Below are positions 4,602-41,109 of a DNA stretch of 64,000 nt, piece after piece. Below the pieces are notes generated by a model. It had not been told where the DNA came from. It ran no database searches and worked only from the letters and a program-made list of their open reading frames with translations. Position 1 is the stretch's first letter; every line of letters begins with the position of its first letter. This DNA comes from a phage, in the sequence record PZ386947.1; one strand, 5' to 3'. The position numbers were made by a program, and so were the translations under genes.

Positions 4602-4619
4602 AAAGGGCCGAAGCCCTTT
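4602..4619 (-). terminator. tetraloop hairpin (GGGC-UUCG-GCCC on minus strand) at the 3' end of a-gt
   Basis: plus sequence aaagggccgaagcccttt; overlaps the a-gt stop codon. Confidence 0.35.
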
Positions 4620-5820: not shown

Positions 5821-5870
5821 TTAATATCCTCTTTGTTTTGGTTTATTTTACCAAAAATTTATAAAGCAAT

Positions 5871-5890
5871 ATAGGAGCCGAAGCTCCTAT
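5871..5890 (-). terminator. tetraloop hairpin (GGAGC-UUCG-GCUCC)
   Basis: plus sequence ataggagccgaagctcctat, upstream of a-gt. Confidence 0.3.
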
Positions 5891-6060
5891 CCACATAATA
5901 CGCCATACAGAGACTCGTTAGAACTTTTAAATTTTATGCGCTTATATGTTATAGTTCCTTCTGCTTTAGCTTTATCATGAGACTCTTTAAAGCGTCTCAT
6001 CATTTCCTCTTTAGAGGAACGAATTTTATTATAATCTATTTCAGAAGTCTGGATGTTCAT
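5887..6060 (-). CDS. hypothetical small protein (57 aa)
   Basis: hand-translated ORF MNIQTSEIDYNKIRSSKEEMMRRFKESHDKAKAEG...; below ORF-track size cutoff. Confidence 0.3.
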   Translation of the reverse strand: MNIQTSEIDYNKIRSSKEEMMRRFKESHDKAKAEGTITYKRIKFKSSNESLYGVLCG

Positions 6061-6063
6061 CTT

Positions 6064-6270
6064 TCACAGTTGCCACCATTTTTTGACTTGATAAGAATCA
6101 ACCCACACTTTCATATTAGGGTCTGCTCTTACAATAGGAGGATTAACTTCTTTAATTGAACTATCATGGTATTCTTTTTCAGAAATTTTCACACAAAGAT
6201 GACCATTCAAAGATTCAGTAAATCCTGCATTAATTTTAAGACGCTTGAATTTTACGTGTGTAAGCATCAA
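6064..6270 (-). CDS. hypothetical protein (68 aa)
   Basis: ORF track. Confidence 0.45.
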   Translation of the reverse strand: MMLTHVKFKRLKINAGFTESLNGHLCVKISEKEYHDSSIKEVNPPIVRADPNMKVWVDSYQVKKWWQL

Positions 6271-6553
6271 TCATATCCTCAATTTGCGATCTAGTAGTCT
6301 TCCAAAGAATACTGATGAGTTCATCGTTATATGGCTGTTTTAGAATATCCCGACTTTTCTTGATAGCATATTCGTATTGAGCAAAATTATTGTTTTCAGC
6401 TGCGATCTGAGCGTGCTTATAAAGACGATTCAGTTCGCGTTTGTTTTTAGACAATAACTTATTTGCTTTTCTTTCTGCTTCAAGACGGTTCTTTTCTTCA
6501 ATAGAAGAAATAAGCTTTTCCACTTCATCATTAATTTCGGGTTTATCAGTCAT
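6236..6553 (-). CDS. hypothetical protein (105 aa)
   Basis: ORF track; charged, helical-looking sequence. Confidence 0.5.
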   Translation of the reverse strand: MTDKPEINDEVEKLISSIEEKNRLEAERKANKLLSKNKRELNRLYKHAQIAAENNNFAQYEYAIKKSRDILKQPYNDELISILWKTTRSQIEDMIDAYTRKIQAS

Positions 6554-6554
6554 A

Positions 6555-6773
6555 TTATTTCTCTAATATAAAATAAAAATCATCATCTGTTAAATGATAC
6601 CTGTAATTTAATTCTACACCATTAGATTTAAAAGCGGTATCATACGGATTTTCTGGATCAATATCAATGTCAAGAGCTAAAACTTCCCTGAGATACATTT
6701 TAAGTAAATAGGGAATAGCTTCAACTTCAGGTATTTCTTCCAAGAATCCGGAGAGGTTAATCGTTAGCCTCAT
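6555..6773 (-). CDS. hypothetical protein (72 aa)
   Basis: ORF track. Confidence 0.5.
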
Positions 6774-7314
6774 ATAAAAAATCCAAACTAGGAGAATCGT
6801 CTACAACACTTTTCTTTTCAGCCCCCGGTGTTCTATAGGTTGATTCTTCGTAATGCGTCATTTTATCGTAAATGTCTTGAATAAAAGTTTCATCTACTAA
6901 CGCAACCATATCGTCGTCACGGCTGTCATAGACATTGTGAACGAAGTAACTATATTTCTTTGCAACTTCCTTACGTTCTTTTTTAATACGTTGGACGAAT
7001 GCATTAAAACAAGCTTGAGTTATATACGCATGTGGGTTTTTATATTTCGTTTCATCAAAATTATGAAGCCCCTTAATAGAAGCTTCTATACCATCTGCAA
7101 TCATTTCTTGTTTCCAAGACTGGGTGTATCCTGAAAAGTTGAAACGTTTAGATAAGCCTTCTGCAATAAGCATAATGGCTAATCCGATAGTATCATTCTG
7201 ACGAACTACTTTATTTGGGTCTTTATTATTTGCTAATTCTGTTTTCCAATCAATAATAGCTTGTAAAAGCTCTTTATTGTTTACGTAATTATATTTAGGC
7301 TTAGTTTCTGACAT
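6757..7314 (-). CDS. 55: late-transcription sigma factor gp55
   Basis: starts [24 protein letters not shown]...; 185 aa from second ATG, matching T4 gp55. Confidence 0.9.
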
Positions 7315-7392
7315 TTTCACCTCTTAGCTCAATTCATAGATCTATTATATCATAATATTTGAAGATCTATCTTAAAGCATAGAGGATATCAG

Positions 7393-7662
7393 TTATCTAA
7401 GTAAACAGTATGCTTGGAACACTTTATCCATCATCTTTTTAAATTCATGAATATCTATATAATGACTAGTTAGATCAGCATGATATAAAAAGTCTAAAAA
7501 CTTTTCATGTGTACTAACATATTCACTTTCATTTAATTCAGAAACATGACTTTCCCAATATCCAACACCAGTCTTATTTGGGAAAAATGAAATTTTCATG
7601 TATTGGTCAACATAGAAAATGCCATAATTTTCAATAGTAATAGAAATATTAATAAATTTCAT
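7393..7662 (-). CDS. hypothetical protein (89 aa)
   Basis: ORF track. Confidence 0.45.
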   Translation of the reverse strand: MKFINISITIENYGIFYVDQYMKISFFPNKTGVGYWESHVSELNESEYVSTHEKFLDFLYHADLTSHYIDIHEFKKMMDKVFQAYCLLR

Positions 7663-7880
7663 ACATTCATCAACTTAGCCGCTTCAAGAGCTGCATCTAG
7701 TGAATCAAATTGATCAACATATTCAATCAATTCGCCGTAATTGGCATATAACCACCATTGGCTAAATTCATACTCAAGGATGAATCCGTTTCCTTCAATT
7801 TGAGTTAAACCAATGCCATTTGTATTTACTTCATATCCGGCAAGACGCAAATCGTTAATAAGAGCTTCGTTCATATTCAT
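7659..7880 (-). CDS. hypothetical protein (73 aa)
   Basis: ORF track. Confidence 0.45.
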   Translation of the reverse strand: MNMNEALINDLRLAGYEVNTNGIGLTQIEGNGFILEYEFSQWWLYANYGELIEYVDQFDSLDAALEAAKLMNV

Positions 7881-8203
7881 ACCTTAGCAATTTTCAGGTC
7901 TGCAAATTTTTTCTTGCGTTGATTTTTCATGCGACGAATAGTTTTATCGGAAATTTCATGCTTTTGATAAGCTTTAGATTCTACGCCAAAAGCTTTAACA
8001 TCAAATTCCGACAAGATATATTGAACCAGCAATTCACGGACAGTATTACGTCCAATCTTCTGATCATTCTGTTTCATCGTCTGATGAAGCTCTTTTTCCC
8101 ATTTATCCAAAATTTGAGGAGTTACAATATCGCCTTTTTCTAACAAAGAAACTACTTTATCATATGCGTAAGAATTGATGGCGTTTTTAATTTGAATAGT
8201 CAT
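7877..8203 (-). CDS. hypothetical protein (108 aa)
   Basis: ORF track. Confidence 0.5.
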   Translation of the reverse strand: MTIQIKNAINSYAYDKVVSLLEKGDIVTPQILDKWEKELHQTMKQNDQKIGRNTVRELLVQYILSEFDVKAFGVESKAYQKHEISDKTIRRMKNQRKKKFADLKIAKV

Positions 8204-8241
8204 ACATTATCCTCAATTACGTTAAAATTTTATTATCCAAA

Positions 8242-8257
8242 AAGGGCCGAAGCCCTT
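8242..8257 (-). terminator. tetraloop hairpin (GGGC-UUCG-GCCC)
   Basis: plus sequence aagggccgaagccctt, same motif as 4602-4619. Confidence 0.3.
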
Positions 8258-8456
8258 AGCTAAACTTTTTGGCACCCTTCCAGCCTTCATACATCATTGC
8301 GGCTGATATTAATATTGCTCCTGAGCAACTTGAATATTTGTGATTCCAAAACCAGTTTAGAAAAACTTCATCATCAATACCTTGGGCTATCATATTTTCA
8401 AAGAACTGACGACGAGATTCGGCAATTCGTTGTGATAATTTAGATTCAGGATTCAT
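8256..8456 (-). CDS. hypothetical protein (66 aa)
   Basis: ORF track. Confidence 0.45.
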   Translation of the reverse strand: MNPESKLSQRIAESRRQFFENMIAQGIDDEVFLNWFWNHKYSSCSGAILISAAMMYEGWKGAKKFS

Positions 8457-8672
8457 TTAAATTTTCCAGTTACCGTTTTCATCAATAAATTTAATCCAGT
8501 CATTTACTGACCACTTAGTTGTATCGCCTTTTGGAGTAGCATTTAAAGTATATAGTCCTTGCTTAAAAAGCATTCGTTTGATATTCATATTTTCCTCAGC
8601 TATAACGATAACACTCGTTTGATTTACGTTTAGCAACTCGTTGAGAAGTATTATAATCAAAATCATCGTCAA
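8457..8672 (-). CDS. hypothetical small protein (possibly shorter, start at 8588)
   Basis: ORF track; N-terminal part overlaps next ORF in another frame, internal ATG MNIKRMLF more likely. Confidence 0.35.
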   Translation of the reverse strand: MTMILIIILLNELLNVNQTSVIVIAEENMNIKRMLFKQGLYTLNATPKGDTTKWSVNDWIKFIDENGNWKI

Positions 8673-8889
8673 TGTAAACAGATTTTTTCAACTTTCTTAC
8701 TTCGCCGCGTAATTGACGATTTAGCTCATCTTTAACTTCTGAATCAATACCTTTCATTCTACGCCATTTATCTGAGCGAAAAATGTTTTCAACCATATCT
8801 TTATGACTTACACCATCAGGAGCTTTACGCTTTCCGAAATAGTCATAATCACGCACTTTTAAGTCTTTACGACGATACGTTTTACCCAT
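8596..8889 (-). CDS. hypothetical basic protein
   Basis: ORF track 8596-8934 trimmed to ATG MGKTYRRKDLK... Confidence 0.4.
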   Translation of the reverse strand: MGKTYRRKDLKVRDYDYFGKRKAPDGVSHKDMVENIFRSDKWRRMKGIDSEVKDELNRQLRGEVRKLKKSVYIDDDFDYNTSQRVAKRKSNECYRYS

Positions 8890-9064
8890 GGAGTTTAATT
8901 TCCTTAGCAACTGAACTAAATACAGCACGATCACAAATCATACGTTTATGTAACTTGAGTATAATATAGCAAACTTCAAAACTATTTACATGAGTAACAC
9001 GAACAGCATTACCATTAATGAGATAATACTGTCCCTTTTTAATTTCTTTATCAACCACAACCAT
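8882..9064 (-). CDS. hypothetical small protein (60 aa)
   Basis: ORF track; early promoter immediately upstream. Confidence 0.45.
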   Translation of the reverse strand: MVVVDKEIKKGQYYLINGNAVRVTHVNSFEVCYIILKLHKRMICDRAVFSSVAKEIKLHG

Positions 9065-9092
9065 ATCAATTCCTCAAAGGTAATTCATATGT

Positions 9093-9125
9093 TAATAATA
9101 CCACGGTTTGAACTTGTTGTAAACA
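9093..9125 (-). promoter_or_regulatory. T4-type early promoter (GTTTAC -35, 18 nt spacer, TATTAT -10)
   Basis: minus strand reads aaagttGTTTACaacaagttcaaaccgtggTATTATtaac. Confidence 0.55.
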
Positions 9126-9203
9126 ACTTTGTGAAAATTATTTTAGGGAATGATAAGAAAGGAACGATAGCTTAGAATGGTAATATACAGAATGTGAGAA
9201 AGA

Positions 9204-9220
9204 AAGGCCCAGAGGGCCCG
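9204..9220 (-). terminator. GC-rich hairpin followed by U-rich tract, downstream of nrdH
   Basis: plus sequence ggcccagagggcc; minus strand hairpin then tttctttc. Confidence 0.4.
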
Positions 9221-9222
9221 TC

Positions 9223-9531
9223 TTAATCTTCTATGATATCTCTATCATATCCAAGTGAAATGAGAGTTTCTTTGAAGTGTTTAATGTTCTTTTGTCTAGA
9301 ATCATTAATGAAAATGACTGGATAACGAATGTTAAGAGATGTGAATCCAGCGCGTTTAGCAAGAGATACAATCAGTGGACGATCATACTCAATCTTACCG
9401 TTATTTGTAAGAACTTTATAGAAAGTAAAAGGAGCATTGAGCTCCTTTAGAAGTTTTGTAACTGATTGACATCCAGGACAACGACCTACTTCATCTGGAA
9501 TTCCATAGACTTCAATCTTATTTTGTTTCAC
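9223..9531 (-). CDS. nrdH: glutaredoxin-like redoxin
   Basis: 102 aa; CPGC redox motif; sits next to nrdG/nrdD as in T4. Confidence 0.65.
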   Translation of the reverse strand: MKQNKIEVYGIPDEVGRCPGCQSVTKLLKELNAPFTFYKVLTNNGKIEYDRPLIVSLAKRAGFTSLNIRYPVIFINDSRQKNIKHFKETLISLGYDRDIIED

Positions 9532-9533
9532 AA

Positions 9534-9746
9534 CTATTCCTTACTAAGAGCAGCATTCAGCTTGTTAGTAATTTTATCCAGACGCTCATTGAACTCACTA
9601 GAAGATAAGCCTTTTTCTGGAGAAATTAAGCTAATCACGAAAAATACAACAATAAAAGGAATAAGGAAAATAGCTCCAACTGCCATAAACAGAAAGAATG
9701 TTACAGTTGTAAGAAAATCAGCTAAACCTTTACGAAATTTATACAT
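9534..9746 (-). CDS. small membrane protein
   Basis: 70 aa; single long hydrophobic segment. Confidence 0.5.
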   Translation of the reverse strand: MYKFRKGLADFLTTVTFFLFMAVGAIFLIPFIVVFFVISLISPEKGLSSSEFNERLDKITNKLNAALSKE

Positions 9747-9861
9747 ATTTTACCCTTAATTGATTAACCAAGCATTGATAAGCACTAAACTATACTGCGA
9801 ATAAAATTCTGGACCAAAATGAAAAATCATATCATTTATAGTATCCATAATGTAATTCAAT

Positions 9862-10332
9862 TTAATCATGTTTCCACACCCCATCGGTATTTGACCAAAG
9901 CCGCTGATTATCTGATCCTCTCCACAGCTTTTTGGTCGGAAGATTTTTCTCATACTTCCCATCAATAATAACATCAACATATTTAAGCATTTCTAGTTGT
10001 TTAATATCTTCAAACTTATATCCTGTCCACAACCAAATGCTTTTATTTGGATAAAGATTTTTTACTGTTTGAACAATGCAATGAATAACATCTCGATTAT
10101 CAGGATAGAGAGGGTCTCCTCCAGTTATAGTTAATCCTTCTATATAATCATTATTCAAACATTCAATTAATTGTTCTAGTGTTTCACCAGTAAATGGAAT
10201 ACCATTTCTAGCATTCCATGTTGATTTATTATAACACCCTTCGCATTTATGCAAACAACCTGTAACGAAAAGAACGGCCCTGCATCCAGGGCCGTTCACA
10301 AAATCGCAAGGATAAAATCTATCATAATTCAT
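9862..10332 (-). CDS. nrdG: anaerobic ribonucleotide reductase activating protein (radical SAM)
   Basis: 156 aa; CxxxCxxC-type cluster (GCLHKCEGCYN); directly downstream of nrdD. Confidence 0.9.
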   Translation of the reverse strand: MNYDRFYPCDFVNGPGCRAVLFVTGCLHKCEGCYNKSTWNARNGIPFTGETLEQLIECLNNDYIEGLTITGGDPLYPDNRDVIHCIVQTVKNLYPNKSIWLWTGYKFEDIKQLEMLKYVDVIIDGKYEKNLPTKKLWRGSDNQRLWSNTDGVWKHD

Positions 10333-12146
10333 TGGTGTTTAACCCTATGCATGATTTCTTTATTTTTACCGAGATTAAATCCGCGTTCGTTCGGATTTCC
10401 CAAATAACCACATGTTCTTCTTATTGTGTTCATCTTTTTAGGATCAGTTTCTCCACAAATAGAACAAACAAATCCGTTTTCAGTAGGAGTCATTTCATGG
10501 GTACTTCCACATGTAAAACATTTATCTACTGGCATATTAACACCAAAATAATCTAAATGTTGTGCAGCATAATCCCATACGGCCTCAAGACCCTTTAAGT
10601 TATTTTTCATATCAGGAAGTTCAACATAAGAAATGTGACCACCTGTCGCAATGAAATGATATGGCGCTTCACGAGAAATCTTTTCAAACGGAGTAATATT
10701 TTCTTCTACTGAAACGTGGAAACTGTTAGTGTACCAGCCTTTATCGGTAACATCTTTTACACTTCCATATTTTTCTGTATCAAGTTTACAGAAGCGATAA
10801 CAAAGGTTTTCAGCAGGAGTCGAATATAAACTAAAAGCAAATCCAGTTCTTTCAGTCCACTGTTTAAGATGAGCATTCATTTTAGTTAAAATTTCTTGTC
10901 CAATATCACGACCGACAAGAATATTCAATTCGTGAATACCAATGTATCCTAGGGACACTGAACTTCTACCGTTTTTAAATAACTCAATTATGTCGTCATC
11001 AGGTTTAAGACGAACCCCGAATGCACCTTCTTGGTAAAGAATAGGAGCAACAGTAGCTTTAACTCCTTTTAAGGAACTAATTCTACACATCAATGCTTCA
11101 AAACATAAATCCATTCGTTCATTGAACAATTCAACAAATTTCTGTTCATTGAATTGTGTTCCAATATAAGAATCTAACGCGATGCGAGGAAGATTCAATG
11201 TTACAACACCAAGATTATTACGTCCATCAAGAATTTCATTGCCAGTCGAATCTTTCCATACGCTCAAGAAACTACGGCATCCCATCGGAGAAACAGGAAC
11301 AGATGAACCAGTGATAGCTTTATTGTTCTTAGCCGAAATGATGTCAGGATACATTCTTTTGCTTGCGCACTCTAAAGCAAGCTGCTTAATATCATAGTTC
11401 GGGTCGTCTTTATAAAGATTAACACCTTCTTCAACGAACATAACAAGCTTAGGGAAAATAGGAGTTATCCCATCACGACCAAGACCTTTAATACGATTTT
11501 TCAGAATTGCTTTCTGAATCATTCGTTCAGTCCAGTCAGTTCCCGTACCAAATGTAATTGTTACAAAAGGCGTTTGTCCGTTTGAACTAAAGAGAGTATT
11601 TACTTCATATTCATAAGCTTGGAATGCATCGTATACGTCTTTTTCTGTTTTAGATTGAGCATAATTTAACGCATCAGCGATTTGCCATTTTTCTGCATCC
11701 TCAATATGTTTTGCATAGGTGCGTTTAACATAAGGAGAAAGTACTTTATCTACATTAGCAAAAGTCGTTCCGCCGTATTGATGGGAAGCAACCTGTGCAG
11801 TAATTTGTGCCATAATTGCAGTAGCAACACCGATTGATTTAGGAGTTTCAATCTGTGCATTACCAAGCTTAAATCCATTCTCAAGCATTCCTTTTAAATC
11901 TACTAAACAACAATTAGTAAATGGAAGAGCAGGGGAATAATCAATATCGTGGAAATGAATAATTCCGCTTTCATGCGCTTTCATAATAAAAGACGGGACC
12001 ATATTTTTGGCAATGTGTTTAGACACAATACCAGCCATAAGGTCCCGTTGAGTTGGAAAAACACGAGAATCTTTATTAGCATTCTCGTTTAAAAGGTCTT
12101 TATTAGTTTTATGAATCAATCCTTCAATTTCTTTTTCAATTGTCAT
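10329..12146 (-). CDS. nrdD: anaerobic ribonucleoside-triphosphate reductase, uninterrupted
   Basis: 605 aa; C-terminal glycyl radical motif RRTCGYLG and zinc ribbon CFTCG...CSICG; continuous ORF. Confidence 0.93.
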   Translation of the reverse strand: MTIEKEIEGLIHKTNKDLLNENANKDSRVFPTQRDLMAGIVSKHIAKNMVPSFIMKAHESGIIHFHDIDYSPALPFTNCCLVDLKGMLENGFKLGNAQIETPKSIGVATAIMAQITAQVASHQYGGTTFANVDKVLSPYVKRTYAKHIEDAEKWQIADALNYAQSKTEKDVYDAFQAYEYEVNTLFSSNGQTPFVTITFGTGTDWTERMIQKAILKNRIKGLGRDGITPIFPKLVMFVEEGVNLYKDDPNYDIKQLALECASKRMYPDIISAKNNKAITGSSVPVSPMGCRSFLSVWKDSTGNEILDGRNNLGVVTLNLPRIALDSYIGTQFNEQKFVELFNERMDLCFEALMCRISSLKGVKATVAPILYQEGAFGVRLKPDDDIIELFKNGRSSVSLGYIGIHELNILVGRDIGQEILTKMNAHLKQWTERTGFAFSLYSTPAENLCYRFCKLDTEKYGSVKDVTDKGWYTNSFHVSVEENITPFEKISREAPYHFIATGGHISYVELPDMKNNLKGLEAVWDYAAQHLDYFGVNMPVDKCFTCGSTHEMTPTENGFVCSICGETDPKKMNTIRRTCGYLGNPNERGFNLGKNKEIMHRVKHQ

Positions 12147-20294: not shown

Positions 20295-21281
20295 TTATTT
20301 CAGAAGAGTAACCTCAGCGATTTCTTCCCAACCGTTTTTGTCGGTCATAATAAAGTCAGCAAGATAAAGAGCAGTACGCAGTGAAACATTGCGTAAACGA
20401 TTAACATTGACTTTCATCCATGATAATGCTTTATAAGTTTCTTCATCAGAAAGACCGCGCTTTTGCATCATGTCAGTTGAAAGAATAACATCTTCAACCC
20501 TGACCATAATTTCTTCATTAGTGTGAACACCCAAATCTAAATAAACTGAGCGGGACACTAATGCTTGTAAATGTGGAGCAAGTTTAGTACCACGGTCTAA
20601 TTCGCGGTCAATATCAACGTTTGTGATAAAAACAATCGTTCCTTTAAATTCAAACTCACGCTCAATGCCTTTTTCTTCTAAGTAAGAAGATGCAGTGCTC
20701 CAGCAGACTTTACGGGTCTCTCCGGTGTCCAGAGCAGCTTTCAGAAGATTAAGAATGTCCATATCAGAGAAAACATCCACATCATCAATCAAAAGGACAG
20801 AATTCTCTTCACGATTATTCCAAAGCTGTTCATAAAGACCGATACCAGAGATTTTACCATTAATGCTTTTATACTCAATGTATCCAATATCATTTGCTTT
20901 ATTTAAAGCTTTATCTAAAGAATACGTTTTACCAATACCTGCTGCTCCCGAGATAATTAATGAACGAATGTTTCCGTTAATAATACCATTCGTCATCATT
21001 CCCATAACATTAAATCTTTTATTAATGCGGGTTTTCATATCTTCATACGATTCTTTAACTTCTTCAACTTTTACACCATCATATGAAATGTCTGATTTGT
21101 AAACCCAAACACCGCGACGTTTACCGTCAATTTCAACAAAAACTTTACCATCTCCTTGTGCATCTACCGGAGCATTATCTGGGAACCATTCGCCTAAGAG
21201 CTCAAAAGTTCCAGAGATTTCTTTACCGAAGTAGATACCCTTATTGATAGTTACAGTTTTCATTTTGTTCTCCAATTTCAC
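20295..21281 (-). CDS. P-loop ATPase (AAA-like)
   Basis: 328 aa; Walker A GAAGIGKTY, Walker B VLLIDDVD. Confidence 0.6.
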   Translation of the reverse strand: MKLENKMKTVTINKGIYFGKEISGTFELLGEWFPDNAPVDAQGDGKVFVEIDGKRRGVWVYKSDISYDGVKVEEVKESYEDMKTRINKRFNVMGMMTNGIINGNIRSLIISGAAGIGKTYSLDKALNKANDIGYIEYKSINGKISGIGLYEQLWNNREENSVLLIDDVDVFSDMDILNLLKAALDTGETRKVCWSTASSYLEEKGIEREFEFKGTIVFITNVDIDRELDRGTKLAPHLQALVSRSVYLDLGVHTNEEIMVRVEDVILSTDMMQKRGLSDEETYKALSWMKVNVNRLRNVSLRTALYLADFIMTDKNGWEEIAEVTLLK

Positions 21282-21332
21282 ATTTGTTTTGATAGGGTAA
21301 TAATATCACACTACTACCCTGCTGTAAACAAT

Positions 21333-21596
21333 TTATTTTAATGTTTGCCAAATTTTTACTGCTTCACGACGAGATACTTCTACAGCTCCAAGTTCTACAG
21401 CTTTTTGGCGTCGCCGAGCGTGTAAGTCATAATGTTTAATGCGTTTATCTTGAAACCAAGAACGTTTCATTCCTATTGCTTCTGCCATTTCATGAAGCTC
21501 TTCAATATCTCCATCAGTGAACATATGACAATTTTTAGTTGGATGACCGCGAAGTTTCCATCCATGATTCATTAAAACATCTACGTAAACTGTCAT
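21333..21596 (-). CDS. hypothetical protein (87 aa)
   Basis: ORF track. Confidence 0.5.
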   Translation of the reverse strand: MTVYVDVLMNHGWKLRGHPTKNCHMFTDGDIEELHEMAEAIGMKRSWFQDKRIKHYDLHARRRQKAVELGAVEVSRREAVKIWQTLK

Positions 21597-21742
21597 TGAT
21601 TCTTCTCCAAATAAGTTTCGATAATTTTCTGAGCGAGATAAACTGCATTATCTTCAGTTGCATCTTCTAAGAAACTTTCAAAACACTCTGAAATTTCTTC
21701 TGTGTCAATCAACTTTTTTACTTCAATTGGTGTAATTTTCAT
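21593..21742 (-). CDS. hypothetical small protein (49 aa)
   Basis: ORF track 21593-21811 trimmed to MKITPIEV...; upstream part is a translated promoter. Confidence 0.4.
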   Translation of the reverse strand: MKITPIEVKKLIDTEEISECFESFLEDATEDNAVYLAQKIIETYLEKNQ

Positions 21743-21777
21743 TTTGTTTTTCCGTTTAAGTGTTTGTTTTGATAGTT

Positions 21778-21810
21778 GTATAGTACCATAAAGCTTTATG
21801 CTTGTAAACA
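21778..21810 (-). promoter_or_regulatory. T4-type early promoter (GTTTAC, 18 nt spacer, TGgTACTAT)
   Basis: minus strand GTTTACaagcataaagctttatggTACTATacaactatc. Confidence 0.6.
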
Positions 21811-21859: not shown

Positions 21860-22870
21860 TCATTTATAATAACTTCGGTGGTTTTCAAGATAAACCCTCT
21901 CAAGGAAGTCATCCCAAAAACCCATGTCTACTTTTTGCTGCATACCGTTCTTAGAAGCTTCAGTAGATGCTGCTTCTACTTGATCGACCACATCTTCCAA
22001 AAACTCTTGAACCGTTTTAAATGGATGTTTACCCAACTTCACGTCGAGAATAAATGGAGCATCTTGGAGTGGATAAACCAAGTCACCAGTTTTGTAAATT
22101 TCCAATAGTTGGAGTCCACCACGGCAAGCATGACTCATAGCTTTCCAGTCAATACCTTCATTGGCTTCGGCCTTACGAGCACGTTCACCGTATTCAGCAT
22201 CTAATTTGTTCAGTGACTGCTTAAGCTCAATAAGAGAAAGCGTTGTCTGATATTTACGACCCAACACTGTGTAAAACGTCTGTGGGCCTGTTTTCTCATG
22301 ATTATGGAACACCCATTCACAGAATTCGTTTTCTGGAAGACGATGCTTAATATCTTCAACTTTAGTACGACGCTGCTTAATGGAACCGTCTTCTTGGTAA
22401 TCAACCCATTGCTCAGGGATTTGATTAACTACTTTCAATACATCGCGTAATGCAGCCAAACGAGAACCCTTAACGCCGTATTTAGAAGCTTGCTTACGGA
22501 CATATCCTAAATAGGATTTCATGTTAGTCGTATAAAAACGAGAACGGTTGTCTTGAATAAACTTCCACACATCAGGCAAATCAGATTTAACCACTAACTC
22601 AGGTGGAGTGTGAAGCATATCTAACGCTACAGTTTCACCATCTGCTGCTAATTTAAAGAAATATTTAAGACTATACAATTCGTGGTCAATATCATCTTTA
22701 GTGTTTTTAGATGATGTGTTGTTAGTGTTTTTACTCATATGCTCTTTAACATTTCCGATAAGAATATCGCGAGCAGGAGGAACAAAAATTTCTTTAAAAT
22801 CTACATCAGATTCTGGAGTAGAAGTTCCATAAAGATGACTACCAAAATAAGACTTAACTACAGTTTTCAT
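21860..22870 (-). CDS. predicted nucleotidyltransferase (Pol-beta superfamily-like)
   Basis: N-terminal motif YFGSHLYGTSTPESDVDFKEIF (GS...SDxD); trimmed to ATG MKTVVKSY preceded by AAAGG. Confidence 0.55.
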   Translation of the reverse strand: MKTVVKSYFGSHLYGTSTPESDVDFKEIFVPPARDILIGNVKEHMSKNTNNTSSKNTKDDIDHELYSLKYFFKLAADGETVALDMLHTPPELVVKSDLPDVWKFIQDNRSRFYTTNMKSYLGYVRKQASKYGVKGSRLAALRDVLKVVNQIPEQWVDYQEDGSIKQRRTKVEDIKHRLPENEFCEWVFHNHEKTGPQTFYTVLGRKYQTTLSLIELKQSLNKLDAEYGERARKAEANEGIDWKAMSHACRGGLQLLEIYKTGDLVYPLQDAPFILDVKLGKHPFKTVQEFLEDVVDQVEAASTEASKNGMQQKVDMGFWDDFLERVYLENHRSYYK

Positions 22871-23633
22871 TATTAGACCTTTCATAATCTTCATTAAATT
22901 GTACAATCAATCGATGATAATTAGATTTTGGATATCCTAATTTACTTATATAAGTTCCGAATGACCCACGTTTAGGTCTATTTAATTTAATCCATAACTT
23001 ATAAAGTAAGTCATAGTCTTGCCAATGTTTACCAGTTCTTTGTCTAATTTTAGATGAATTTGATTGTTTCTTTTTAGTTTCAAAATTATTCAAAGATTTT
23101 TTGACTGCAGCAGAGTGTTTTTCTTTAACTCCCGGTCGTTTAAAAGCAGCTTTCACCCCTTTAGATATTTTTTCTTTAACTTCCGGTTTGTTTTGTGCTT
23201 CTAACTGGGATTCTGAAATTTTAGCCCTTATTTCAGGAAGACTTAATGTTATCGAACGTTTTTCTCTGTATTCATTAGACTTCCACATTTCTTTCATTGT
23301 ATTAGAATGTATTTTTGAAAATTTTTCTCTAACTAACTGATATCCTCTTGAAGTTAATTTGAGATTTCTTCCTAAAGAATCTTCTCCAAAATTATAAAAT
23401 GACCACCATGCATAAATTAATCCAGGCGAATTATAATGAATTTTAGCTAAAAGCCAATGGGCTATAAAATGCTCTCTAGCTGTTAATAAAACTAGATTAT
23501 CAGAATCATCATTACCACCAATACAAGATGGAATAATATGATGCTTTTCCGTATAAAAATTTAATTTAGATTTATCTAATTTTCTGAGTTTTCCTTTCTT
23601 AATTAAATTATTATATACTTTAGTATAATTCAT
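22854..23633 (-). CDS. HNH-family homing endonuclease (Mob-like)
   Basis: 259 aa; motif KHHIIPSCIGGNDDSDNLVLLTAREHFIAHWLLAK; C-terminal module shared with ORF 2124-2978. Confidence 0.75.
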   Translation of the reverse strand: MNYTKVYNNLIKKGKLRKLDKSKLNFYTEKHHIIPSCIGGNDDSDNLVLLTAREHFIAHWLLAKIHYNSPGLIYAWWSFYNFGEDSLGRNLKLTSRGYQLVREKFSKIHSNTMKEMWKSNEYREKRSITLSLPEIRAKISESQLEAQNKPEVKEKISKGVKAAFKRPGVKEKHSAAVKKSLNNFETKKKQSNSSKIRQRTGKHWQDYDLLYKLWIKLNRPKRGSFGTYISKLGYPKSNYHRLIVQFNEDYERSNNENCS

Positions 23634-23707
23634 TGGTTTTTCGTCTCATTTAATTTTGCTTTGCATTTATAACACATGTCTGTTCCACTTGAAATAAACA
23701 TATTTCC

Positions 23708-24265
23708 TCACTTTGAAATCATAGTTGGAATGACAGAATCAAGATAAGTCTTTAGTGCAATAGCTTCGTCTTTGGTAAATGTGACAATATGTGCTCGAAA
23801 ATCATCAATTTGACGAATAGTTAAGACATCTCCATCTTCATAACATTTTGATACGTTTAAAACAGTTTCATCATTCTGATTGCAAGCGTTAGTAATAATA
23901 GCATTGCAATTTTTAAACCATTTTAAACTATGTTTTCTTTCATTAGAATAATAAAAATATTTAATCTTATCTATAAAACTATCCCAATGGATAACTGATA
24001 AACACATTGACTCACTTTTAATATTAAATCCTGGGCATGAAGAATAAAAATGAATTTTGTGCTCATCATTGATGCTTACTATTTTATCAGTATAAGGATA
24101 TTCAATTTGGGTTAAATGAATGATTTCACTAGGCGTAAAATATAGCATATCGTCTTCTTGTGTCAAACGATACATATTATTTACTTTTTCTATAGCTAAT
24201 TCACCAAAAAGCGGACTAACTTCTAATACTAATCGTTTCATATTGATTCTCTTCGACTCACTCAC
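23708..24265 (-). CDS. hypothetical protein (185 aa)
   Basis: ORF track; GTG start, alternative ATG at 24241. Confidence 0.5.
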   Translation of the reverse strand: MSESKRINMKRLVLEVSPLFGELAIEKVNNMYRLTQEDDMLYFTPSEIIHLTQIEYPYTDKIVSINDEHKIHFYSSCPGFNIKSESMCLSVIHWDSFIDKIKYFYYSNERKHSLKWFKNCNAIITNACNQNDETVLNVSKCYEDGDVLTIRQIDDFRAHIVTFTKDEAIALKTYLDSVIPTMISK

Positions 24266-24267
24266 AA

Positions 24268-24372
24268 TTACATACTCCTTTGAATAATATCAATAATGTT
24301 GTTCACCAGATTATAAGTAAACATTGGATAATTATATTGAATCATCACATACACAACAAACAAAACTTTCAT
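24268..24372 (-). CDS. hypothetical micro-protein (34 aa, hydrophobic)
   Basis: hand-translated; AAGGAGA Shine-Dalgarno 6 nt upstream of ATG; MKVLFVVYVMIQYNYPMF... Confidence 0.3.
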   Translation of the reverse strand: MKVLFVVYVMIQYNYPMFTYNLVNNIIDIIQRSM

Positions 24373-24399
24373 TCTCTTCTCCTTGGAAGTTGACAAGAT

Positions 24400-24431
24400 T
24401 ACTATACCATAACCTTGCCAACTTGTAAACC
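24400..24431 (-). promoter_or_regulatory. T4-type early promoter (GTTTAC, 18 nt spacer, TATAGT)
   Basis: minus strand GTTTACaagttggcaaggttatggTATAGTaat. Confidence 0.5.
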
Positions 24432-24432
24432 A

Positions 24433-24606
24433 TTAAATGGCGTTTTCAATAAAATTCTGAAGCTTTGTGTGAGCATCAACCATGATTTTCATTTCTTCTT
24501 TGGCGAAAGCTGTACCTCTTTCCCGAGAAGAACATTCATAGTCAGAAACTGCATTAGCATATTCTTCAATTAGTTTCATTAAAAACATCTGCTTTTCAGT
24601 TTTCAT
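24433..24606 (-). CDS. hypothetical small protein (57 aa)
   Basis: hand-translated ORF MKTEKQMFLMKLIEEYANAVSDYE...; below ORF-track cutoff. Confidence 0.3.
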   Translation of the reverse strand: MKTEKQMFLMKLIEEYANAVSDYECSSRERGTAFAKEEMKIMVDAHTKLQNFIENAI

Positions 24607-24792: not shown

Positions 24793-24996
24793 TTACACTC
24801 TCGTATTATGATCGATAATTTCATCAAGAAACATATCTAACGCTTCTATAGCATTATCCACTTTAGTTTCAAAGTCTTTAATGCCTTTATTCGAAATACC
24901 CGATGAATACCAAGCAAAGTCAATCAGCTCTTCATCTGCTTTACGAATTGAAGCCACTAATTCCTTGATTTTATCTGCTTGCTCTATACTAATCAT
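24793..24996 (-). CDS. hypothetical protein
   Basis: ORF track 24793-25032 trimmed to [13 protein letters not shown]... Confidence 0.45.
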   Translation of the reverse strand: MISIEQADKIKELVASIRKADEELIDFAWYSSGISNKGIKDFETKVDNAIEALDMFLDEIIDHNTRV

Positions 24997-37110: not shown

Positions 37111-37461
37111 TTAATATTCTTTTAAAGCATCAATCTGTTTACGGCGTTCACGCCATAAATCAATTGCTTCATACGCGGATTCAACATTTCGAATTGGACG
37201 GCATTTATATAAAGATTTGTGATTTTGATATTGCGTAGATAACGGAATTTTATCTAAAAGGTCTTTACGTTCAAAGTATTCGTAACCATCTAAGCCAAAT
37301 GAACGATTTTTGAGAAATTGCCAATGACCAAATTCGTTTTGAATATAAATATAATCCGCATGTTGATAAAGTAAATTAATTTCACGAAATGAGATATGTT
37401 TTTCATATTCATTGAAGTAAAATGTTAAATCATGAACTACTAAATAAACATTACCTTTCAT
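37111..37461 (-). CDS. hypothetical protein (116 aa)
   Basis: ORF track; immediately downstream of tRNA-Arg. Confidence 0.5.
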   Translation of the reverse strand: MKGNVYLVVHDLTFYFNEYEKHISFREINLLYQHADYIYIQNEFGHWQFLKNRSFGLDGYEYFERKDLLDKIPLSTQYQNHKSLYKCRPIRNVESAYEAIDLWRERRKQIDALKEY

Positions 37462-37479
37462 ATTTTCCTCACTTATAAT

Positions 37480-37555
37480 TGGTCGAGGCAGTAGGGATCG
37501 AACCTACGACCTAGGACTTAGAAGGTCCTTGCTCTTCCTTCTGAGCTATGCCCCG
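37480..37555 (-). tRNA. tRNA-Arg (anticodon UCU)
   Basis: hand-folded cloverleaf: 7 bp acceptor stem, T-arm GTAGG-TTCGATC-CCTAC, anticodon loop CTTCTAA, encoded CCA. Confidence 0.85.
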
Positions 37556-37659
37556 TAATTGGGGTGACCGATGGGAGTCGAACCACCCGAGTCGCAATGA
37601 CAATGGATTTACAGTCCACACCGCTACCTCTACGGGATAACTCCCCTTAATTCTTAATT
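37556..37659 (-). ncRNA. tRNA-like element of uncertain identity (degenerate tRNA or stable small RNA)
   Basis: fills the gap between tRNA-Ile and tRNA-Arg; has GGTTCGACTCC T-loop-like motif, acceptor-like 3' end ending CCCCA, and a hairpin with GUA in a 7 nt loop, but no canonical cloverleaf. Confidence 0.3.
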
Positions 37660-37734
37660 TGGTGGCCCTGGGTGGAATTGAACCACCATCTGGCGATTAT
37701 GAGTCGCTTGCTTGAACCTTCCAGCTACAGGGCC
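37660..37734 (-). tRNA. tRNA-Ile (anticodon CAU, presumably modified to read AUA)
   Basis: matches recalled T4 tRNA-Ile; T-arm GGTGG-TTCAATT-CCACC; anticodon loop CTCATAA; encoded CCA. Confidence 0.85.
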
Positions 37735-37735
37735 T

Positions 37736-37811
37736 TGGTGCTGATTGACGGAATCGAACCGCCGACCTTCTCATTACAAGTGAGTTGCTCTACCTACTGA
37801 GCTAAATCAGC
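37736..37811 (-). tRNA. tRNA-Thr (anticodon UGU)
   Basis: GCTGATTTAGCTCAGTAGG...ACTTGTAATGA...GGTTCGATTCC...CAGCACCA; 1 nt spacer from tRNA-Ile. Confidence 0.85.
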
Positions 37812-37816
37812 AAAAC

Positions 37817-37906
37817 TGGCGGAGGCGATAGGATTTGAACCTATGAGTCGCCGGAGCGACTGCCGGTTTTCAAGACCGGTGCATTAAACCACTCTGCCAC
37901 GCCTCC
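37817..37906 (-). tRNA. tRNA-Ser (anticodon UGA), long variable arm
   Basis: matches recalled T4 tRNA-Ser (GGAGGCGTGGCAGAGTGG...CTTGAAAA...GGTTCAAATCC...CCTCCGCCA). Confidence 0.9.
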
Positions 37907-37912
37907 AAATAT

Positions 37913-38563
37913 TTATATATTGTTAATTTGATTTAGAATTCTTTTTGCTTGAGTATGACTTACGCCAATATGCTTAGCATATTTAGACAATTCGCCACGT
38001 TTAGAAAAATCATATAATTTAGAAATTTCTATTCTTCTTTTTCTTTCATCCGCAGAAACTTTTGCTTCGTTTGCTTTTGCTATTTTACGTTTAGCTTCTT
38101 GAGAATGAGTTTTACCAGCAAAGCCATTCTTCATTAATCCATTTGAAGACCATCCTTTTAATTTTCCGTTAGAATGTGCCTTTTTAACACCCAATGAAAT
38201 TAATTCGCGTTGCTGATCTGTCATAGGATAATTATTTATATGATCCCATCCACCTTCACCTCCAAGTTTTAAATTATACACATCTGGTCTATTTAAAAAC
38301 TCTTCTGTGACAATATTTTTCTCGGCTTCAAGCATAGATTCTTTATCGTCAAAATACTCTAATATTTCTTTAGAAAAATTTTCTATACCATATTTATCTT
38401 GGGCTCTTTTTAATAATTTACCAGAACCCATATATCCATCATCTAAATTTTCGGTAGAATGCACACCAATATAAATTTTATTATTAATTTTATTTGTTAT
38501 TTTATAAAGATAAAAATGCATATCAGTCCCTAATAAAGAACTGAGCGTCTCACGACGAGTCAT
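37913..38563 (-). CDS. GIY-YIG homing endonuclease (Seg-like) inside the tRNA cluster
   Basis: 216 aa; GIY-YIG core YLYKITNKINNKIYIGVHS...GYMGSGKLL; C-terminal HTH-like region; wedged between tRNA-Gly and tRNA-Ser. Confidence 0.8.
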   Translation of the reverse strand: MTRRETLSSLLGTDMHFYLYKITNKINNKIYIGVHSTENLDDGYMGSGKLLKRAQDKYGIENFSKEILEYFDDKESMLEAEKNIVTEEFLNRPDVYNLKLGGEGGWDHINNYPMTDQQRELISLGVKKAHSNGKLKGWSSNGLMKNGFAGKTHSQEAKRKIAKANEAKVSADERKRRIEISKLYDFSKRGELSKYAKHIGVSHTQAKRILNQINNI

Positions 38564-38567
38564 AAAT

Positions 38568-38641
<74 letters not shown>

Positions 38642-38646
38642 AAATT

Positions 38647-38733
38647 TGGTGCGAGAAGTGGGACTCGAACCCACAAGGAAATCATTCCGCAGCATTTTAA
38701 GTGCTGTGCCTTTACCAATTTGACCATTCTCGC
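38647..38733 (-). tRNA. tRNA-Leu (anticodon UAA), long variable arm
   Basis: matches recalled T4 tRNA-Leu (GCGAGAATGGTCAAATTGG...CTTAAAA...GGTTCGAGTCC...TCGCACCA). Confidence 0.9.
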
Positions 38734-38739
38734 GCTATA

Positions 38740-39372
38740 TTATTTATTACGTGAAAAAGACTGTTCTATCAATTCTGGACACTTTCGTTCTATCCATTTT
38801 CTAGCTTTTTGTGGGCTTATACCTATTATTTTAGCAGCTTTACTAACCCATCCAAATTTAGAATAATCGATTTTAACTAATTCTTCGTAAATTTCATCAG
38901 TTAAAATCTTTTCATTAATATTTACCAGTAAATGATATAATTTATTATCATTAGCAATTTTAATGAATCTTTTATAGTTTCCGCCTTTACTTAAACCTAA
39001 TGAAGTAATTGCAGATGATATAGTAGCCGAATTTAATAGTGCGTTTAAAATTTCTTCATCACTAACATTATAACGCTTTTTATTATTTTTAATATTTTTA
39101 CCAGCAAAAGTATCAGTTTGCGAATGGCAGTTTGGACATAATAATCTTAAATTTGATTTAAGATGATTTTTGTTATTTCCATCAATATGGTCTAATTGCA
39201 GAACAATATGCTTATTTTGCCATTTTGAAATTTTACAAATTGCACACTCATATGGAAAAATATTTTCTTTTATTATTTTGTCTTTCAGCTTTCCTGTACT
39301 AAAATTTGGATGTTTTCCTTCAAAAATTTCAGCTAATTTAGTATCCATAATATGATTCCCAATTATTAACAA
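38740..39372 (-). CDS. HNH homing endonuclease abutting tRNA-Leu
   Basis: 210 aa; CAIC...LQLDHIDGNNKNH...LRLLCPNCH HNH/zinc-finger core; C-terminal HTH-like segment; stop 7 nt from the tRNA-Leu 5' end. Confidence 0.75.
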   Translation of the reverse strand: MLIIGNHIMDTKLAEIFEGKHPNFSTGKLKDKIIKENIFPYECAICKISKWQNKHIVLQLDHIDGNNKNHLKSNLRLLCPNCHSQTDTFAGKNIKNNKKRYNVSDEEILNALLNSATISSAITSLGLSKGGNYKRFIKIANDNKLYHLLVNINEKILTDEIYEELVKIDYSKFGWVSKAAKIIGISPQKARKWIERKCPELIEQSFSRNK

Positions 39373-39447
39373 AGGCTCTCTAACAAGAACCCTTGATGAT
39401 AGAGGGTATTAATCAGTGCGGTATGAGTTAATAATAACAAATAATTC

Positions 39448-39963
39448 TTAAAGCAAATTAAACATTTTAACGGTCGGCAAAACAATTTCTTTTTCTATAT
39501 AAGAGTATTTAACACTCTCAACTACACGCAAAAAATCATAATCATAATACTCAGAAGCATTACCTAAAATATTAATAAGTCCTTCAAGCACTTTATTACC
39601 ATTCACAAAGAATAAGTCAAATACGCGTTCTTCGTCTTCTTCGGATTTATTACCAAGGTCAACTTCTATATCAAAGACCTTTTTAATGAATTCTGGATAA
39701 AGTTGTTCTGAGAACAGTCCTTCAACCAAGTATTCATAAATAAAAAGCGATTGCTCGCTGAACAAGCCATTACCACAATAACGTTCAGCTTTAGTACTAG
39801 AATGTCTACTTTTAAACTTCTTTAAAAGATATTGAAATTGTAAGATTTCATGCTCTTCTACGCCAAACAGTGTTTTAGTTTTATAGTTGTCACCATCATT
39901 TTCCCAGGTAGTGACATCAATTACGTAACCCTGTGGAATTGTAGTACCTAAACAAATATTCAT
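39448..39963 (-). CDS. hypothetical protein (171 aa)
   Basis: ORF track; internal GLFSEQ repeat. Confidence 0.5.
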   Translation of the reverse strand: MNICLGTTIPQGYVIDVTTWENDGDNYKTKTLFGVEEHEILQFQYLLKKFKSRHSSTKAERYCGNGLFSEQSLFIYEYLVEGLFSEQLYPEFIKKVFDIEVDLGNKSEEDEERVFDLFFVNGNKVLEGLINILGNASEYYDYDFLRVVESVKYSYIEKEIVLPTVKMFNLL

Positions 39964-40823: not shown

Positions 40824-40849
40824 TTTATTCTCCTCAGTAGCTGATAGGG

Positions 40850-40882
40850 TAATAGTATCACTACTAAAACCCAATGTAAACA
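40850..40882 (-). promoter_or_regulatory. early promoter, copy 1 of a 4-copy repeat module
   Basis: minus strand GTTTACattgggttttagtagtgaTACTATtaccctatcag. Confidence 0.55.
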
Positions 40883-40884
40883 AT

Positions 40885-41109
40885 TTATTCAACGCCAGCG
40901 GCTTTCAAAAGTTTCTTAAGATTGGCAACACCTTGAGCAGAAAATGTGACCTTGCCACCTTTTTCACTGATAGAACCAACCAATTTAGCAAGTTTATCAT
41001 TAGGAATTTTTTTAAAATCAGCCAATGTTCCATCAAAGGTTTTTGAAACAAAAGGCAGTTCGTCTTCGCGTCTTTTAGCTTCTACAATAAATTCTTGATA
41101 TGTTTTCAT
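40885..41109 (-). CDS. candidate head internal protein (CTS-bearing)
   Basis: begins MKTYQEFIVEA, matching the T4 internal-protein capsid-targeting sequence; GGAAA SD; own promoter copy upstream. Confidence 0.6.
   Translation of the reverse strand: MKTYQEFIVEAKRREDELPFVSKTFDGTLADFKKIPNDKLAKLVGSISEKGGKVTFSAQGVANLKKLLKAAGVE

Follow-up and report, generated by a model that had tools for sequence, protein, structure and literature searches.

The gene mobD has been listed among the genes of phage T4 ever since the T4 genome was annotated. It is one of 15 homing endonuclease genes in the 169 kb of T4, and a 2010 review gives "ND" for the activity of MobD and "unknown" for its target (PMC2988022); our search of the literature after 2010 found no report on MobD activity. 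Among the described relatives of MobD, MobE and MobA have nicking activity on their targets, and in crosses they are over-inherited (PMC2988022). MobE has been characterized as nicking nrdB and promoting the trans-homing of I-TevIII, and although its locus (nrdA/nrdB) differs from that of mobD, both genes are free-standing, promoter-less cassettes whose start codon overlaps the stop codon upstream (PMC2988022). For MobD, homing is proposed by analogy. A second comparison is SegF, encoded in the gene 56 region of T4, for which a cleavage site and marker exclusion ("intronless homing") have been demonstrated experimentally. SegF has a GIY-YIG catalytic domain, unlike MobD, but its gene is likewise free-standing, lies at the 5' end of a conserved gene, beside or within it, and has a junction at which carrier and non-carrier genomes differ in sequence. 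Lastly, I-HmuI of Bacillus phage SPO1 (PDB 1U3E), a nicking enzyme of solved structure, resembles MobD in overall design, with an extended, modular tail for DNA binding behind an HNH nuclease domain. However, I-HmuI is intron-encoded and belongs to HNH_3 (His-Me group 2), whereas MobA-E were assigned to His-Me group 1 by Jablonska et al. 2017 (PMC5714182), and I-HmuI/HNH_3 did not match MobD in sequence, profile or fold searches.

The window analyzed here, a stretch of 64,000 nucleotides, is 100% identical to positions 30244-94243 of the T4-like Shigella phage CM8 (NC_054939.1). The initial annotation had described an open reading frame at 22854-23633 on the minus strand as a Mob-type HNH endonuclease gene, and that gene is T4 mobD itself. 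The frame runs uninterrupted from an ATG at 23633 to a stop codon at 22854-22856, all 259 residues of its product are those of T4 MobD, and 779 of its 780 nucleotides (99.87%) match the T4 gene. The CM8 record labels it "homing endonuclease", and those of T4 and RB3 label it "mobD". CM8 and T4 also have the gene order nrdC.11-mobD-mobD.1, on one strand, in common. Downstream of mobD is nrdC.11 (21860-22870, minus strand), an RlaP-like nucleotidyltransferase gene (Pfam RlaP, PHROG 388), and upstream is mobD.1 (23708-24241, minus strand), which encodes a y05I-like putative transcription factor (PF24449 and PF24448). Nothing of substance sets CM8 MobD apart from T4 MobD, while the flanks of the gene differ between the two phages by 3-10%. 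The reading frame is the T4 gene mobD in CM8, a free-standing rather than intron-borne gene for a canonical HNH nuclease (His-Me finger group 1); as mobD was already catalogued, the identification made in the initial annotation was correct yet ordinary.

MobD is built of three parts: a nuclease domain (residues 1 to ~90), helical repeats (~95-195) and a C-terminal module (196-259). The HNH (beta-beta-alpha-metal) motif, TEKHHIIPSCIGGNDDSDNLVLLTAREHFIAH, comprises residues 28-59 (23457-23552, minus strand), as determined from conservation and an AF2 model. In an alignment of 55 homologues E29, H31, H32, P35, N46, H55 and H59 were invariant, and the H-N-H catalytic set of H31/H32 (with the general base), N46 and the metal-binding H55/H59 is intact in MobD. 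The AF2 model had a pLDDT of 91.6, rising above 95 across the beta-beta-alpha element (residues 28-65), in which strands at 28-32 and 47-51 are followed by a helix at 52-65, the beta-beta-alpha-metal fold. The score of MobD against the Pfam HNH family PF01844 was 18.2 bits, below the gathering cutoff of 21.4, and 43 of the 55 homologues matched this family at E ≤0.01. Marginal PDB matches to the MobD motif (a group II intron maturase, McrA and Cas8-HNH) were all HNH domains, and HNH domains also ranked first in a Foldseek search of the PDB, every one with E >0.1. Over its full length MobD matched PHROG 655, "homing endonuclease", with an E value of 1e-56.

MobD had no match to Pfam NUMOD3 (PF07460) at E ≤1; this domain is present in 23 of the 55 homologues. 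The middle region of MobD aligned weakly with those repeat regions of MobE and SegA that open with their Pfam NUMOD3 matches, and weakly also with an unannotated region of SegF. Based on these alignments, the roughly 17-residue helical repeats at ~95-195 are best called NUMOD3-like. The C-terminal module (22857-23048, minus strand) is helix-turn-helix-like and is presumed to be the DNA-binding end of the protein. MobE is similar to MobD in its N-terminal HNH domain (52% identity over 81 residues) and in the NUMOD3 repeats that follow, the ones to which the middle of MobD is weakly aligned; it differs in its C-terminal module, which is of a CxxC zinc type similar to that of I-TevIII.

Between genes 46 and 46.1, at 2124-2978 on the minus strand, is a second Mob-family HNH endonuclease gene, CM8 gp053. 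Its 284-residue product has conserved HNH residues and is labelled "homing endonuclease" in the record. Neither this protein nor MobD had a match in NCBIfam. The initial annotation regarded the two proteins as paralogues with a common HNH core and a similar C-terminal module. Our alignments bear out the common parts: BLASTP aligned the proteins over 243 residues at 30% identity (E 1e-18), from the HNH motif (residue 28 of MobD, 47 of the other protein) into the C-terminal module (246 and 281), far beyond the HNH core, and the peptides quoted for the two proteins occur verbatim in their translations. Paralogy holds at the level of the family, as the 2124-2978 protein also matched PHROG 655 over its full length (E 8e-45), but not beyond it, as the nearest relatives differ from domain to domain. 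The N-terminal domain of MobD is 52-61% identical to those of T4 MobB, MobA and MobE versus 38% to that of the 2124-2978 protein. In turn, the first 233 residues of the latter, its N-terminal two thirds, matched an HNH protein of Yersinia phage PST annotated as "MobC" with an E value of 1e-29, nearer than its match to MobD. The last 64 residues of MobD, in contrast, matched the 2124-2978 protein (41% over 51 residues, E 3e-11 in a 13-sequence database) and otherwise only SegA, weakly.

The kinship of the two proteins is modular, on the evidence of these comparisons, and its specific link is the C-terminal module, so that their likeness looks like the product of domain shuffling rather than of a recent duplication. 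A recent intragenomic duplication was rejected in view of the domain-wise similarities. That the two genes are true paralogues from a duplication within the phage lineage could be argued from their single PHROG family, their full-length alignment and the C-terminal module that they uniquely have in common. We consider this very improbable given an overall identity of a mere 30%, the closer ties of the MobD nuclease domain to MobB, MobA and MobE and of the other protein to PST "MobC", and the independent occurrence of the two genes among related phages: CM8 and G28 have both, T4 has mobD only, T2 and T6 have the other only and AR1 has neither.

The gene-46 endonuclease is of the same family as MobD and has the same C-terminal module, yet it is a separate element. 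Unlike T4 MobA-E, its product is without the MNYxKIYxxLI N-terminus, and unlike mobD, its gene sits inside a coding sequence and borrows the start codon. Relative to T4, the BLAST breakpoints and junction sequences delimit an insertion of 861 bp (2100-2960) after codon 6 of gene 46, bordered by a 9-bp direct repeat, TTTAAACTT, at 2091-2099 and 2961-2969. The endonuclease reading frame captures the GTG start of gene 46 and its six opening codons (MKNFKL), and the insert provides gene 46 with a new spacer and a new start (ATG, MKSFKL). The insertion was found in 72 records, T2, T6, RB51 and RB68 among them, and is precisely missing from T4, AR1 and others. T4 gene 46 has at its start the sequence GTGAAGAATTTTAAACTT|AATAGAGT, which is the expected target of the element. 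We found no publication on the gene 46/46.1 endonuclease.

Two further endonuclease genes lie among six tRNA genes. The first (37913-38521, minus strand), between tRNA-Ser and tRNA-Gly, encodes a SegB-like GIY-YIG protein (Pfam GIY-YIG and NUMOD3, PHROG 314) with 44% identity to the N-terminus of T4 SegA. The second (38740-39348, minus strand), next to tRNA-Leu, encodes an HNH endonuclease (PHROG 14736, E 5e-124) that had no similarity to the Mob proteins and is unrelated to them. A tblastn search of the whole window with 13 endonucleases of T4 and CM8 located exactly these four loci, and the count of four homing endonuclease genes in the initial annotation was thus accurate. Its description of the window as a hotspot is less apt, as four such genes are unremarkable: the inspected part of the corresponding stretch in the T4 record also has four (mobB, mobC, I-TevII and mobD), and segB, placed in the T4 tRNA region by the review, would make five (PMC2988022). 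As for the marker exclusion and gene conversion predicted along with the hotspot, we infer them for mobD from the behavior of other T4 endonucleases. Separately, a tandem duplication of IpI/Ip5/57B, suggested by the RefSeq feature table, was considered and rejected; the DNA copies are no more than ~30% identical and the features of the second set lack open reading frames, which indicates an annotation artefact.

Comparative analyses of the mobD locus delimited a mobD-specific cassette of 832 bp (22851-23682), based on BLAST breakpoints and a junction alignment of 13 genomes, that is absent from most related phages. It was present at ≥99.5% identity in 47 of about 506 matching phage records, or ~9% of related genomes, and the next best match was at 79%. 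Among seven carrier genomes the cassette differed by 0-2 of 832 nucleotides (mean pairwise difference 0.14%), while the flanks of these genomes differed by 3-10%; within nrdC.11 the difference was 3-7% per 100 bp. Between CM8 and T4, identity was 99.87% in mobD, 97.1% in nrdC.11 and 89.5% in mobD.1, and on the mobD.1 side it fell sharply within ~100 bp of the cassette. A near-identical cassette in such divergent flanks requires recent transfer between backgrounds. Two hallmarks of homing genes are thus seen in mobD, sporadic presence at one locus among close relatives and an element far more conserved than its flanks, and these data fit a mobile cassette.

The six non-carrier genomes whose slot content was examined had either intact genes or degraded versions of them in place of mobD. 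In AR1 and RB32 the slot is filled by a membrane-protein gene and a paralogue of mobD.1, a layout also found in T6 and ECML-134, and T2 and PE37 have partly degraded versions. The RB32 record itself describes its slot genes with the words "replaces mobD". In addition, VR26 (Gaprivervirus) and a20 (Mosigvirus) encode orthologues of MobD at 81% and 74% amino acid identity, respectively, and in both phages the gene immediately precedes the 5' end of nrdC.11. Together with T4, mobD and its orthologues therefore abut nrdC.11 in three genera, and this common position argues for site specificity.

Endonuclease-driven homing is not the only process that could generate such a pattern. Recombination among T-even phages is very frequent, and many of the 47 records are of T4 laboratory stocks or of RB phages from one collection, so the near-identity of the cassette might reflect homologous recombination of the ordinary kind, or the relatedness of isolates through laboratories and sampling. 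We think this quite improbable, as carriers were also isolated independently in Ireland, Germany, South Korea and Russia, as there are carriers in records named as Salmonella and Shigella phages, and as neither the sharp drop in identity on the mobD.1 side nor the position conserved in three genera is readily reconciled with it. Selection is another process from which the near-identity could stem.

The nrdC.11 end of the cassette provides some indication of where MobD might act. The 3' end of mobD overlaps the start of nrdC.11 by 17 nucleotides in CM8 and T4 alike. In this region (22851-22871, minus strand), comprising codons 1-7 of nrdC.11 and the last five codons of mobD, a cluster of seven substitutions fully separated mobD-carrying from mobD-less genomes in the seven and six genomes, respectively, that were compared. 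For nrdC.11, five of these substitutions are synonymous; of the other two, one turns Met5 into Val and the other is located 1 nucleotide before the ATG. No other column was fully diagnostic in the sequence compared, 1015 bp towards nrdC.11 and 559 bp towards mobD.1. We consider the cluster a candidate self-immunity or target region, while noting that it may exist merely because the mobD frame ends there, without conferring immunity.

At the other end of the cassette is a mini-ORF of 23 codons, MFISSGTDMCYKCKAKLNETKNQ (23630-23701, minus strand), whose TGA overlaps the ATG of mobD (ATGA). Its ribosome-binding site and first six codons are those of the slot gene in mobD-less phages, and in the junction alignment it was the same in all seven mobD-carrying genomes apart from two synonymous differences. 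Inspection of the sequence revealed no obvious ribosome-binding site belonging to mobD. Translation of the mini-ORF and mobD is probably coupled. The consensus of T4 late promoters is TATAAATA, and a predicted late-promoter-like sequence within the cassette, TATAAATG (23664-23671, minus strand), matches it at 7 of 8 positions. A generic scan for sigma-70 promoters and terminators produced output at chance level. An RNA hairpin sequestering the mobD start, comparable to those of I-TevI and Aeh1 mobE, was rejected, as the fold was no better than that of shuffled sequences (z = 0.74).

Based on these observations, we put the probability that this locus is T4 mobD in CM8, an HNH homing endonuclease gene whose homing resembles that of MobE, MobA and the Seg enzymes, at roughly 85%. 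By analogy with those enzymes, in a mixed infection MobD would nick or cut a mobD-less allele near the junction of the membrane-protein gene and nrdC.11, and recombinational repair off the mobD-carrying genome would then give the recipient a copy of the cassette and of the markers next to it. The carrier would be protected from its own MobD by the seven substitutions at codons 1-7 of nrdC.11, or by the absence of the replaced genes. Expression of mobD would probably depend on read-through transcription and on translational re-initiation from the upstream mini-ORF.

A different view of the same locus is that mobD is a decaying or domesticated remnant that no longer homes, and that either is inactive or persists because it does something else, for instance in regulation, in repair or in excluding competitors. 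Broken and deleted copies do occur: Pu-Krd-SF5 has a frame-broken mobD, and G8 has a deletion scar in which the last mobD codons alone are retained. The "ND" entry for MobD activity (PMC2988022), the small share of carriers (~9%) and the lack of an obvious ribosome-binding site for mobD point in the same direction. Nonetheless, we judge this view improbable, because all catalytic residues are intact and invariant in the 55 homologues, there is no amino acid difference between the T4 and CM8 proteins, and the 0-2 nucleotide differences in the cassette against divergent flanks indicate recent transfer; moreover, an active selfish element is expected to decay in some lineages as part of its life cycle.

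The value of these findings as a discovery is small, since the window holds an identical copy of a catalogued gene. Their comparative details, however, narrow the search for the MobD target to the 5' end of nrdC.11 and record the life cycle of mobD in its spread, decay and deletion scars, and they show how a second Mob-family element, hitherto unstudied, is built into gene 46 of T2/T6-type phages. Three further proposals, which could be new, are tentative and somewhat less likely than not. The junction of the membrane-protein gene and nrdC.11 may be the homing site of MobD, in which case the cluster of seven substitutions would be carrier self-immunity. The C-terminal module that links MobD with the gene-46 endonuclease and, more weakly, with SegA may be a portable DNA-binding domain, which would mean that a DNA-binding module has been exchanged between two unrelated nuclease families (HNH and GIY-YIG). 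Finally, T2 and T6 may have in their gene-46 element an active, so far uncharacterized endonuclease gene, and if this is true it could favor T2/T6-type genomes locally over T4 in crosses.

The ORF at 22854-23633 on the minus strand was found to be intact, with an ATG start, 259 codons and no interruption. A 1.3-kb query around it matched Shigella phage CM8 (NC_054939.1 / MK962750.1) at 100% identity and T4 at 97.6%, and because of the complete match to CM8 the window was assigned to CM8 30244-94243 (window positions are CM8 record positions minus 30243). The CM8 annotation calls the ORF, gp092, a homing endonuclease, and the gene is flanked by a nucleotidyltransferase gene (T4 nrdC.11) on one side and the homologue of T4 mobD.1 on the other; the equivalent slot of the T4 genome is occupied by mobD. 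The translated protein was identical to T4 MobD at 259/259 positions, and the CM8 and T4 genes had a single, synonymous difference in 780 nt. The initial annotation of a Mob-like HNH endonuclease gene was confirmed as an observation, and its interpretation was supported with qualifications. As protein identity to T4 is complete, the ORF is T4 mobD itself, more than a Mob-like gene, and it is already known. RefSeq labels the homologues of mobD.1 and mobD.4 (23708-24241 and 24793-24996, and in many related records) as [quoted passage not shown], a name apparently propagated by mistake from the T4 labels MobD.1 and MobD.4; by Pfam, mobD.1 encodes a y05I-like putative transcription factor.

MobD scored 18.2 bits against Pfam HNH, below the cutoff of 21.4. 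Its homologues in a large protein collection numbered 1591, and among 55 that were aligned, 43 matched Pfam HNH and 23 matched NUMOD3, with E29, H31, H32, P35, N46, H55 and H59 invariant. An AlphaFold2 model built from the alignment of homologues was confident (mean pLDDT 91.6) and had an N-terminal helix followed by a beta-beta-alpha element (strands 28-32 and 47-51, helix 52-65), then a long helical run and a three-helix C-terminal end. Together, these data showed the identity of the protein to T4 MobD, its HNH family membership, its intact catalytic residues and its modular architecture.

The gene had also been proposed to be paralogous to the second Mob-family HNH ORF (2124-2978, minus strand, 284 aa). 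The two peptides quoted in support were each found in their respective proteins, both of which matched PHROG 655 (homing endonuclease) over their full length. The two proteins were 30% identical over 243 aligned residues (E 1e-18); the alignment starts at the HNH motif and continues to the C-terminal end, so that the similarity reaches beyond the motif itself. Paralogy therefore stands at the family level. A recent duplication, as the origin of the two genes, was rejected because their domains have different closest relatives. Residues 1-95 of MobD were nearest to T4 MobB (61%), MobA (56%), MobE (52%) and MobC (44%), and were just 38% identical to the 2124-2978 protein. For residues 196-259 the sole match was to the latter (41%, 51 aa, E 3e-11), apart from a weak one to the C-terminal end of SegA, a GIY-YIG enzyme (E 0.004). 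Residues 1-233 of the 2124-2978 protein were closer to an HNH protein of Yersinia phage PST (E 1e-29) than to MobD; this 279-aa relative is annotated "MobC", occupies the nrdG/nrdD slot and has an identical GKTEAHHVLPKSIFPEY motif. These similarities point to a modular relationship with the pattern of domain shuffling.

In CM8, codon 6 of gene 46 is followed by 861 inserted bp (2100-2960) that T4 lacks, bordered by the 9-bp direct repeat TTTAAACTT (region 2091-2978). The 2124-2978 ORF starts at the original GTG of gene 46, which overlaps the 46.1 stop, and takes its six first codons (MKNFKL); gene 46 now starts from the insert end, which supplies a new spacer and an ATG (MKSFKL). This element was identified in 72 records at 98-100% identity, including T2, T6, RB51 and RB68, and was precisely absent from T4, AR1 and most others. 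Several records annotate it as a homing endonuclease, and a literature search found no publication on an HNH gene at this position, between 46.1 and 46.

With 13 T4 and CM8 endonucleases as tblastn queries, exactly four loci were recovered in the window, in agreement with the number originally proposed. The remaining two, a SegB-like GIY-YIG/NUMOD3 gene (37913-38521) and an HNH gene unrelated to the Mob family (38740-39348), are interleaved with the tRNA genes of the cluster at 37400-39450, which number no more than six (Arg, Met, Thr, Ser, Gly and Leu). Among the 852 phage records with a match, only 5 covered at least 80% of this 2-kb arrangement. SegB in T6 drives amplification of anti-defence loci, according to a 2026 paper (PMC13096335). 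Four such genes is an ordinary density for T-even phages: mobB, mobC, I-TevII and mobD are annotated in the inspected part of the corresponding T4 stretch, a review also locates segB in the T4 tRNA region, and T4 has 15 in total (PMC2988022). Three features of T4 are missing from the CM8 region 4442-12146: mobB (beside a-gt in T4), mobC (which in T4 lies between nrdG and nrdD) and the intron of nrdD that carries I-TevII; in CM8, nrdG and nrdD are contiguous.

Elsewhere in the window, the stretch assigned in CM8 to internal-protein genes (40842-41899) contains four copies of a 45-nt element (78-100% identity) and three of a 123-nt element (61-100% identity, relative to the reference copy), spaced about 294-366 bp apart. 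The RefSeq feature table also gives a second IpI/Ip5/57B set at 42168-43316, with a 974-bp offset relative to the first set. This duplication was rejected as an annotation artefact, based on the IpI and Ip5 pairs, whose DNA was just about 30% identical and whose second-set coordinates contain stop codons.

The distribution of mobD showed the population signature of a mobile cassette. About 506 phage records matched the region and only 47 of them contain the gene; a search with the 832-bp cassette alone (22851-23682) returned the same 47 at 99.5-100%, the next matches (79% and 73%) being from other genera. Among seven carriers (CM8, T4, RB3, G28, pSe_SNUABM_01, Pu-Krd-SF5 and F25) the cassette differed by 0-2 nt (mean 0.14%); the neighbouring nrdC.11 of the same phages differed by 3-7% per 100 bp, and mobD.1 was only 89.5% identical between CM8 and T4. 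In the mobD-less Tequatrovirus genomes AR1 and RB32 the slot contains a membrane-protein gene (PHROG 944) and a mobD.1 paralogue (y05I-like, PF24449/PF24448) in tandem with mobD.1 (AR1 locus L007, 1771-2756; RB32 locus L013, 2571-3556), and the RB32 record itself carries the remark "replaces mobD". T6 and ECML-134 have the same layout, and in T2 and PE37 the slot genes are partly degraded, to three small ORFs in T2. Pu-Krd-SF5 has a decayed mobD split in two ORFs (L011, 2480-3259). In G8, a 1.7-kb deletion (window equivalent 22881-24596; L017, 2240-2440) has left a scar that joins mobD.3 to the final residues of MobD (…NNENCS) beside a carrier-type nrdC.11 start. All four combinations of presence and absence of mobD and the gene-46 element were seen among relatives.

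Another variable slot lies beside the mobD locus, between nrdC.10 and nrdC.11, where about 545 bp of CM8 (21256-21800) have no T4 alignment. Its content in CM8 is a DUF4031 gene plus a 49-aa ORF, both also in ECML-134; T2 has a different gene there, annotated as an ADP-ribosylase.

At the upstream junction of the cassette, homology to non-carriers stops at 23683, past the ribosome-binding site and six first codons (MFISSG) of the displaced mobD.1 paralogue, whose start in carriers runs on into a 23-codon mini-ORF (23701-23630). Within this mini-ORF, TATAAATG is one base off the T4 late-promoter consensus. The mini-ORF TGA and the mobD ATG overlap as ATGA, which suggests translational coupling of the two, as proposed from a like arrangement for nrdA/mobE (PMC2988022). 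We looked for an RNA hairpin masking the mobD start and found none. At the downstream junction, the final five mobD codons overlap the nrdC.11 start, and seven positions in 22851-22871 fully separated the seven carriers from six non-carriers (five synonymous in nrdC.11, one Met5 to Val and one before the ATG). These were the only fully diagnostic columns in 1015 bp on the nrdC.11 side; the 559 bp compared next to mobD.1 had no such column.

Gaprivervirus VR26 and Mosigvirus a20 have MobD orthologues (81% and 74% amino-acid identity) that lie directly 5' of nrdC.11 and downstream of an intact membrane-protein gene. The ancestral insertion point was therefore the membrane-protein gene/nrdC.11 junction; in the T4-type cassette the membrane-protein gene has been lost as well, along with most of the mobD.1 paralogue. 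Based on this ancestral position, the leading candidate for the MobD target is the 5' end of nrdC.11. A review gives the activity of MobD as "ND" and its target as "unknown" (PMC2988022), and no later literature on its activity or target was found. If it acts as MobE, MobA and the Seg enzymes do (PMC2988022), MobD would nick or cleave the cassette-less allele near nrdC.11, recombinational repair would then copy the cassette together with flanking markers, and carriers would be protected by an altered junction or by the absence of the target.
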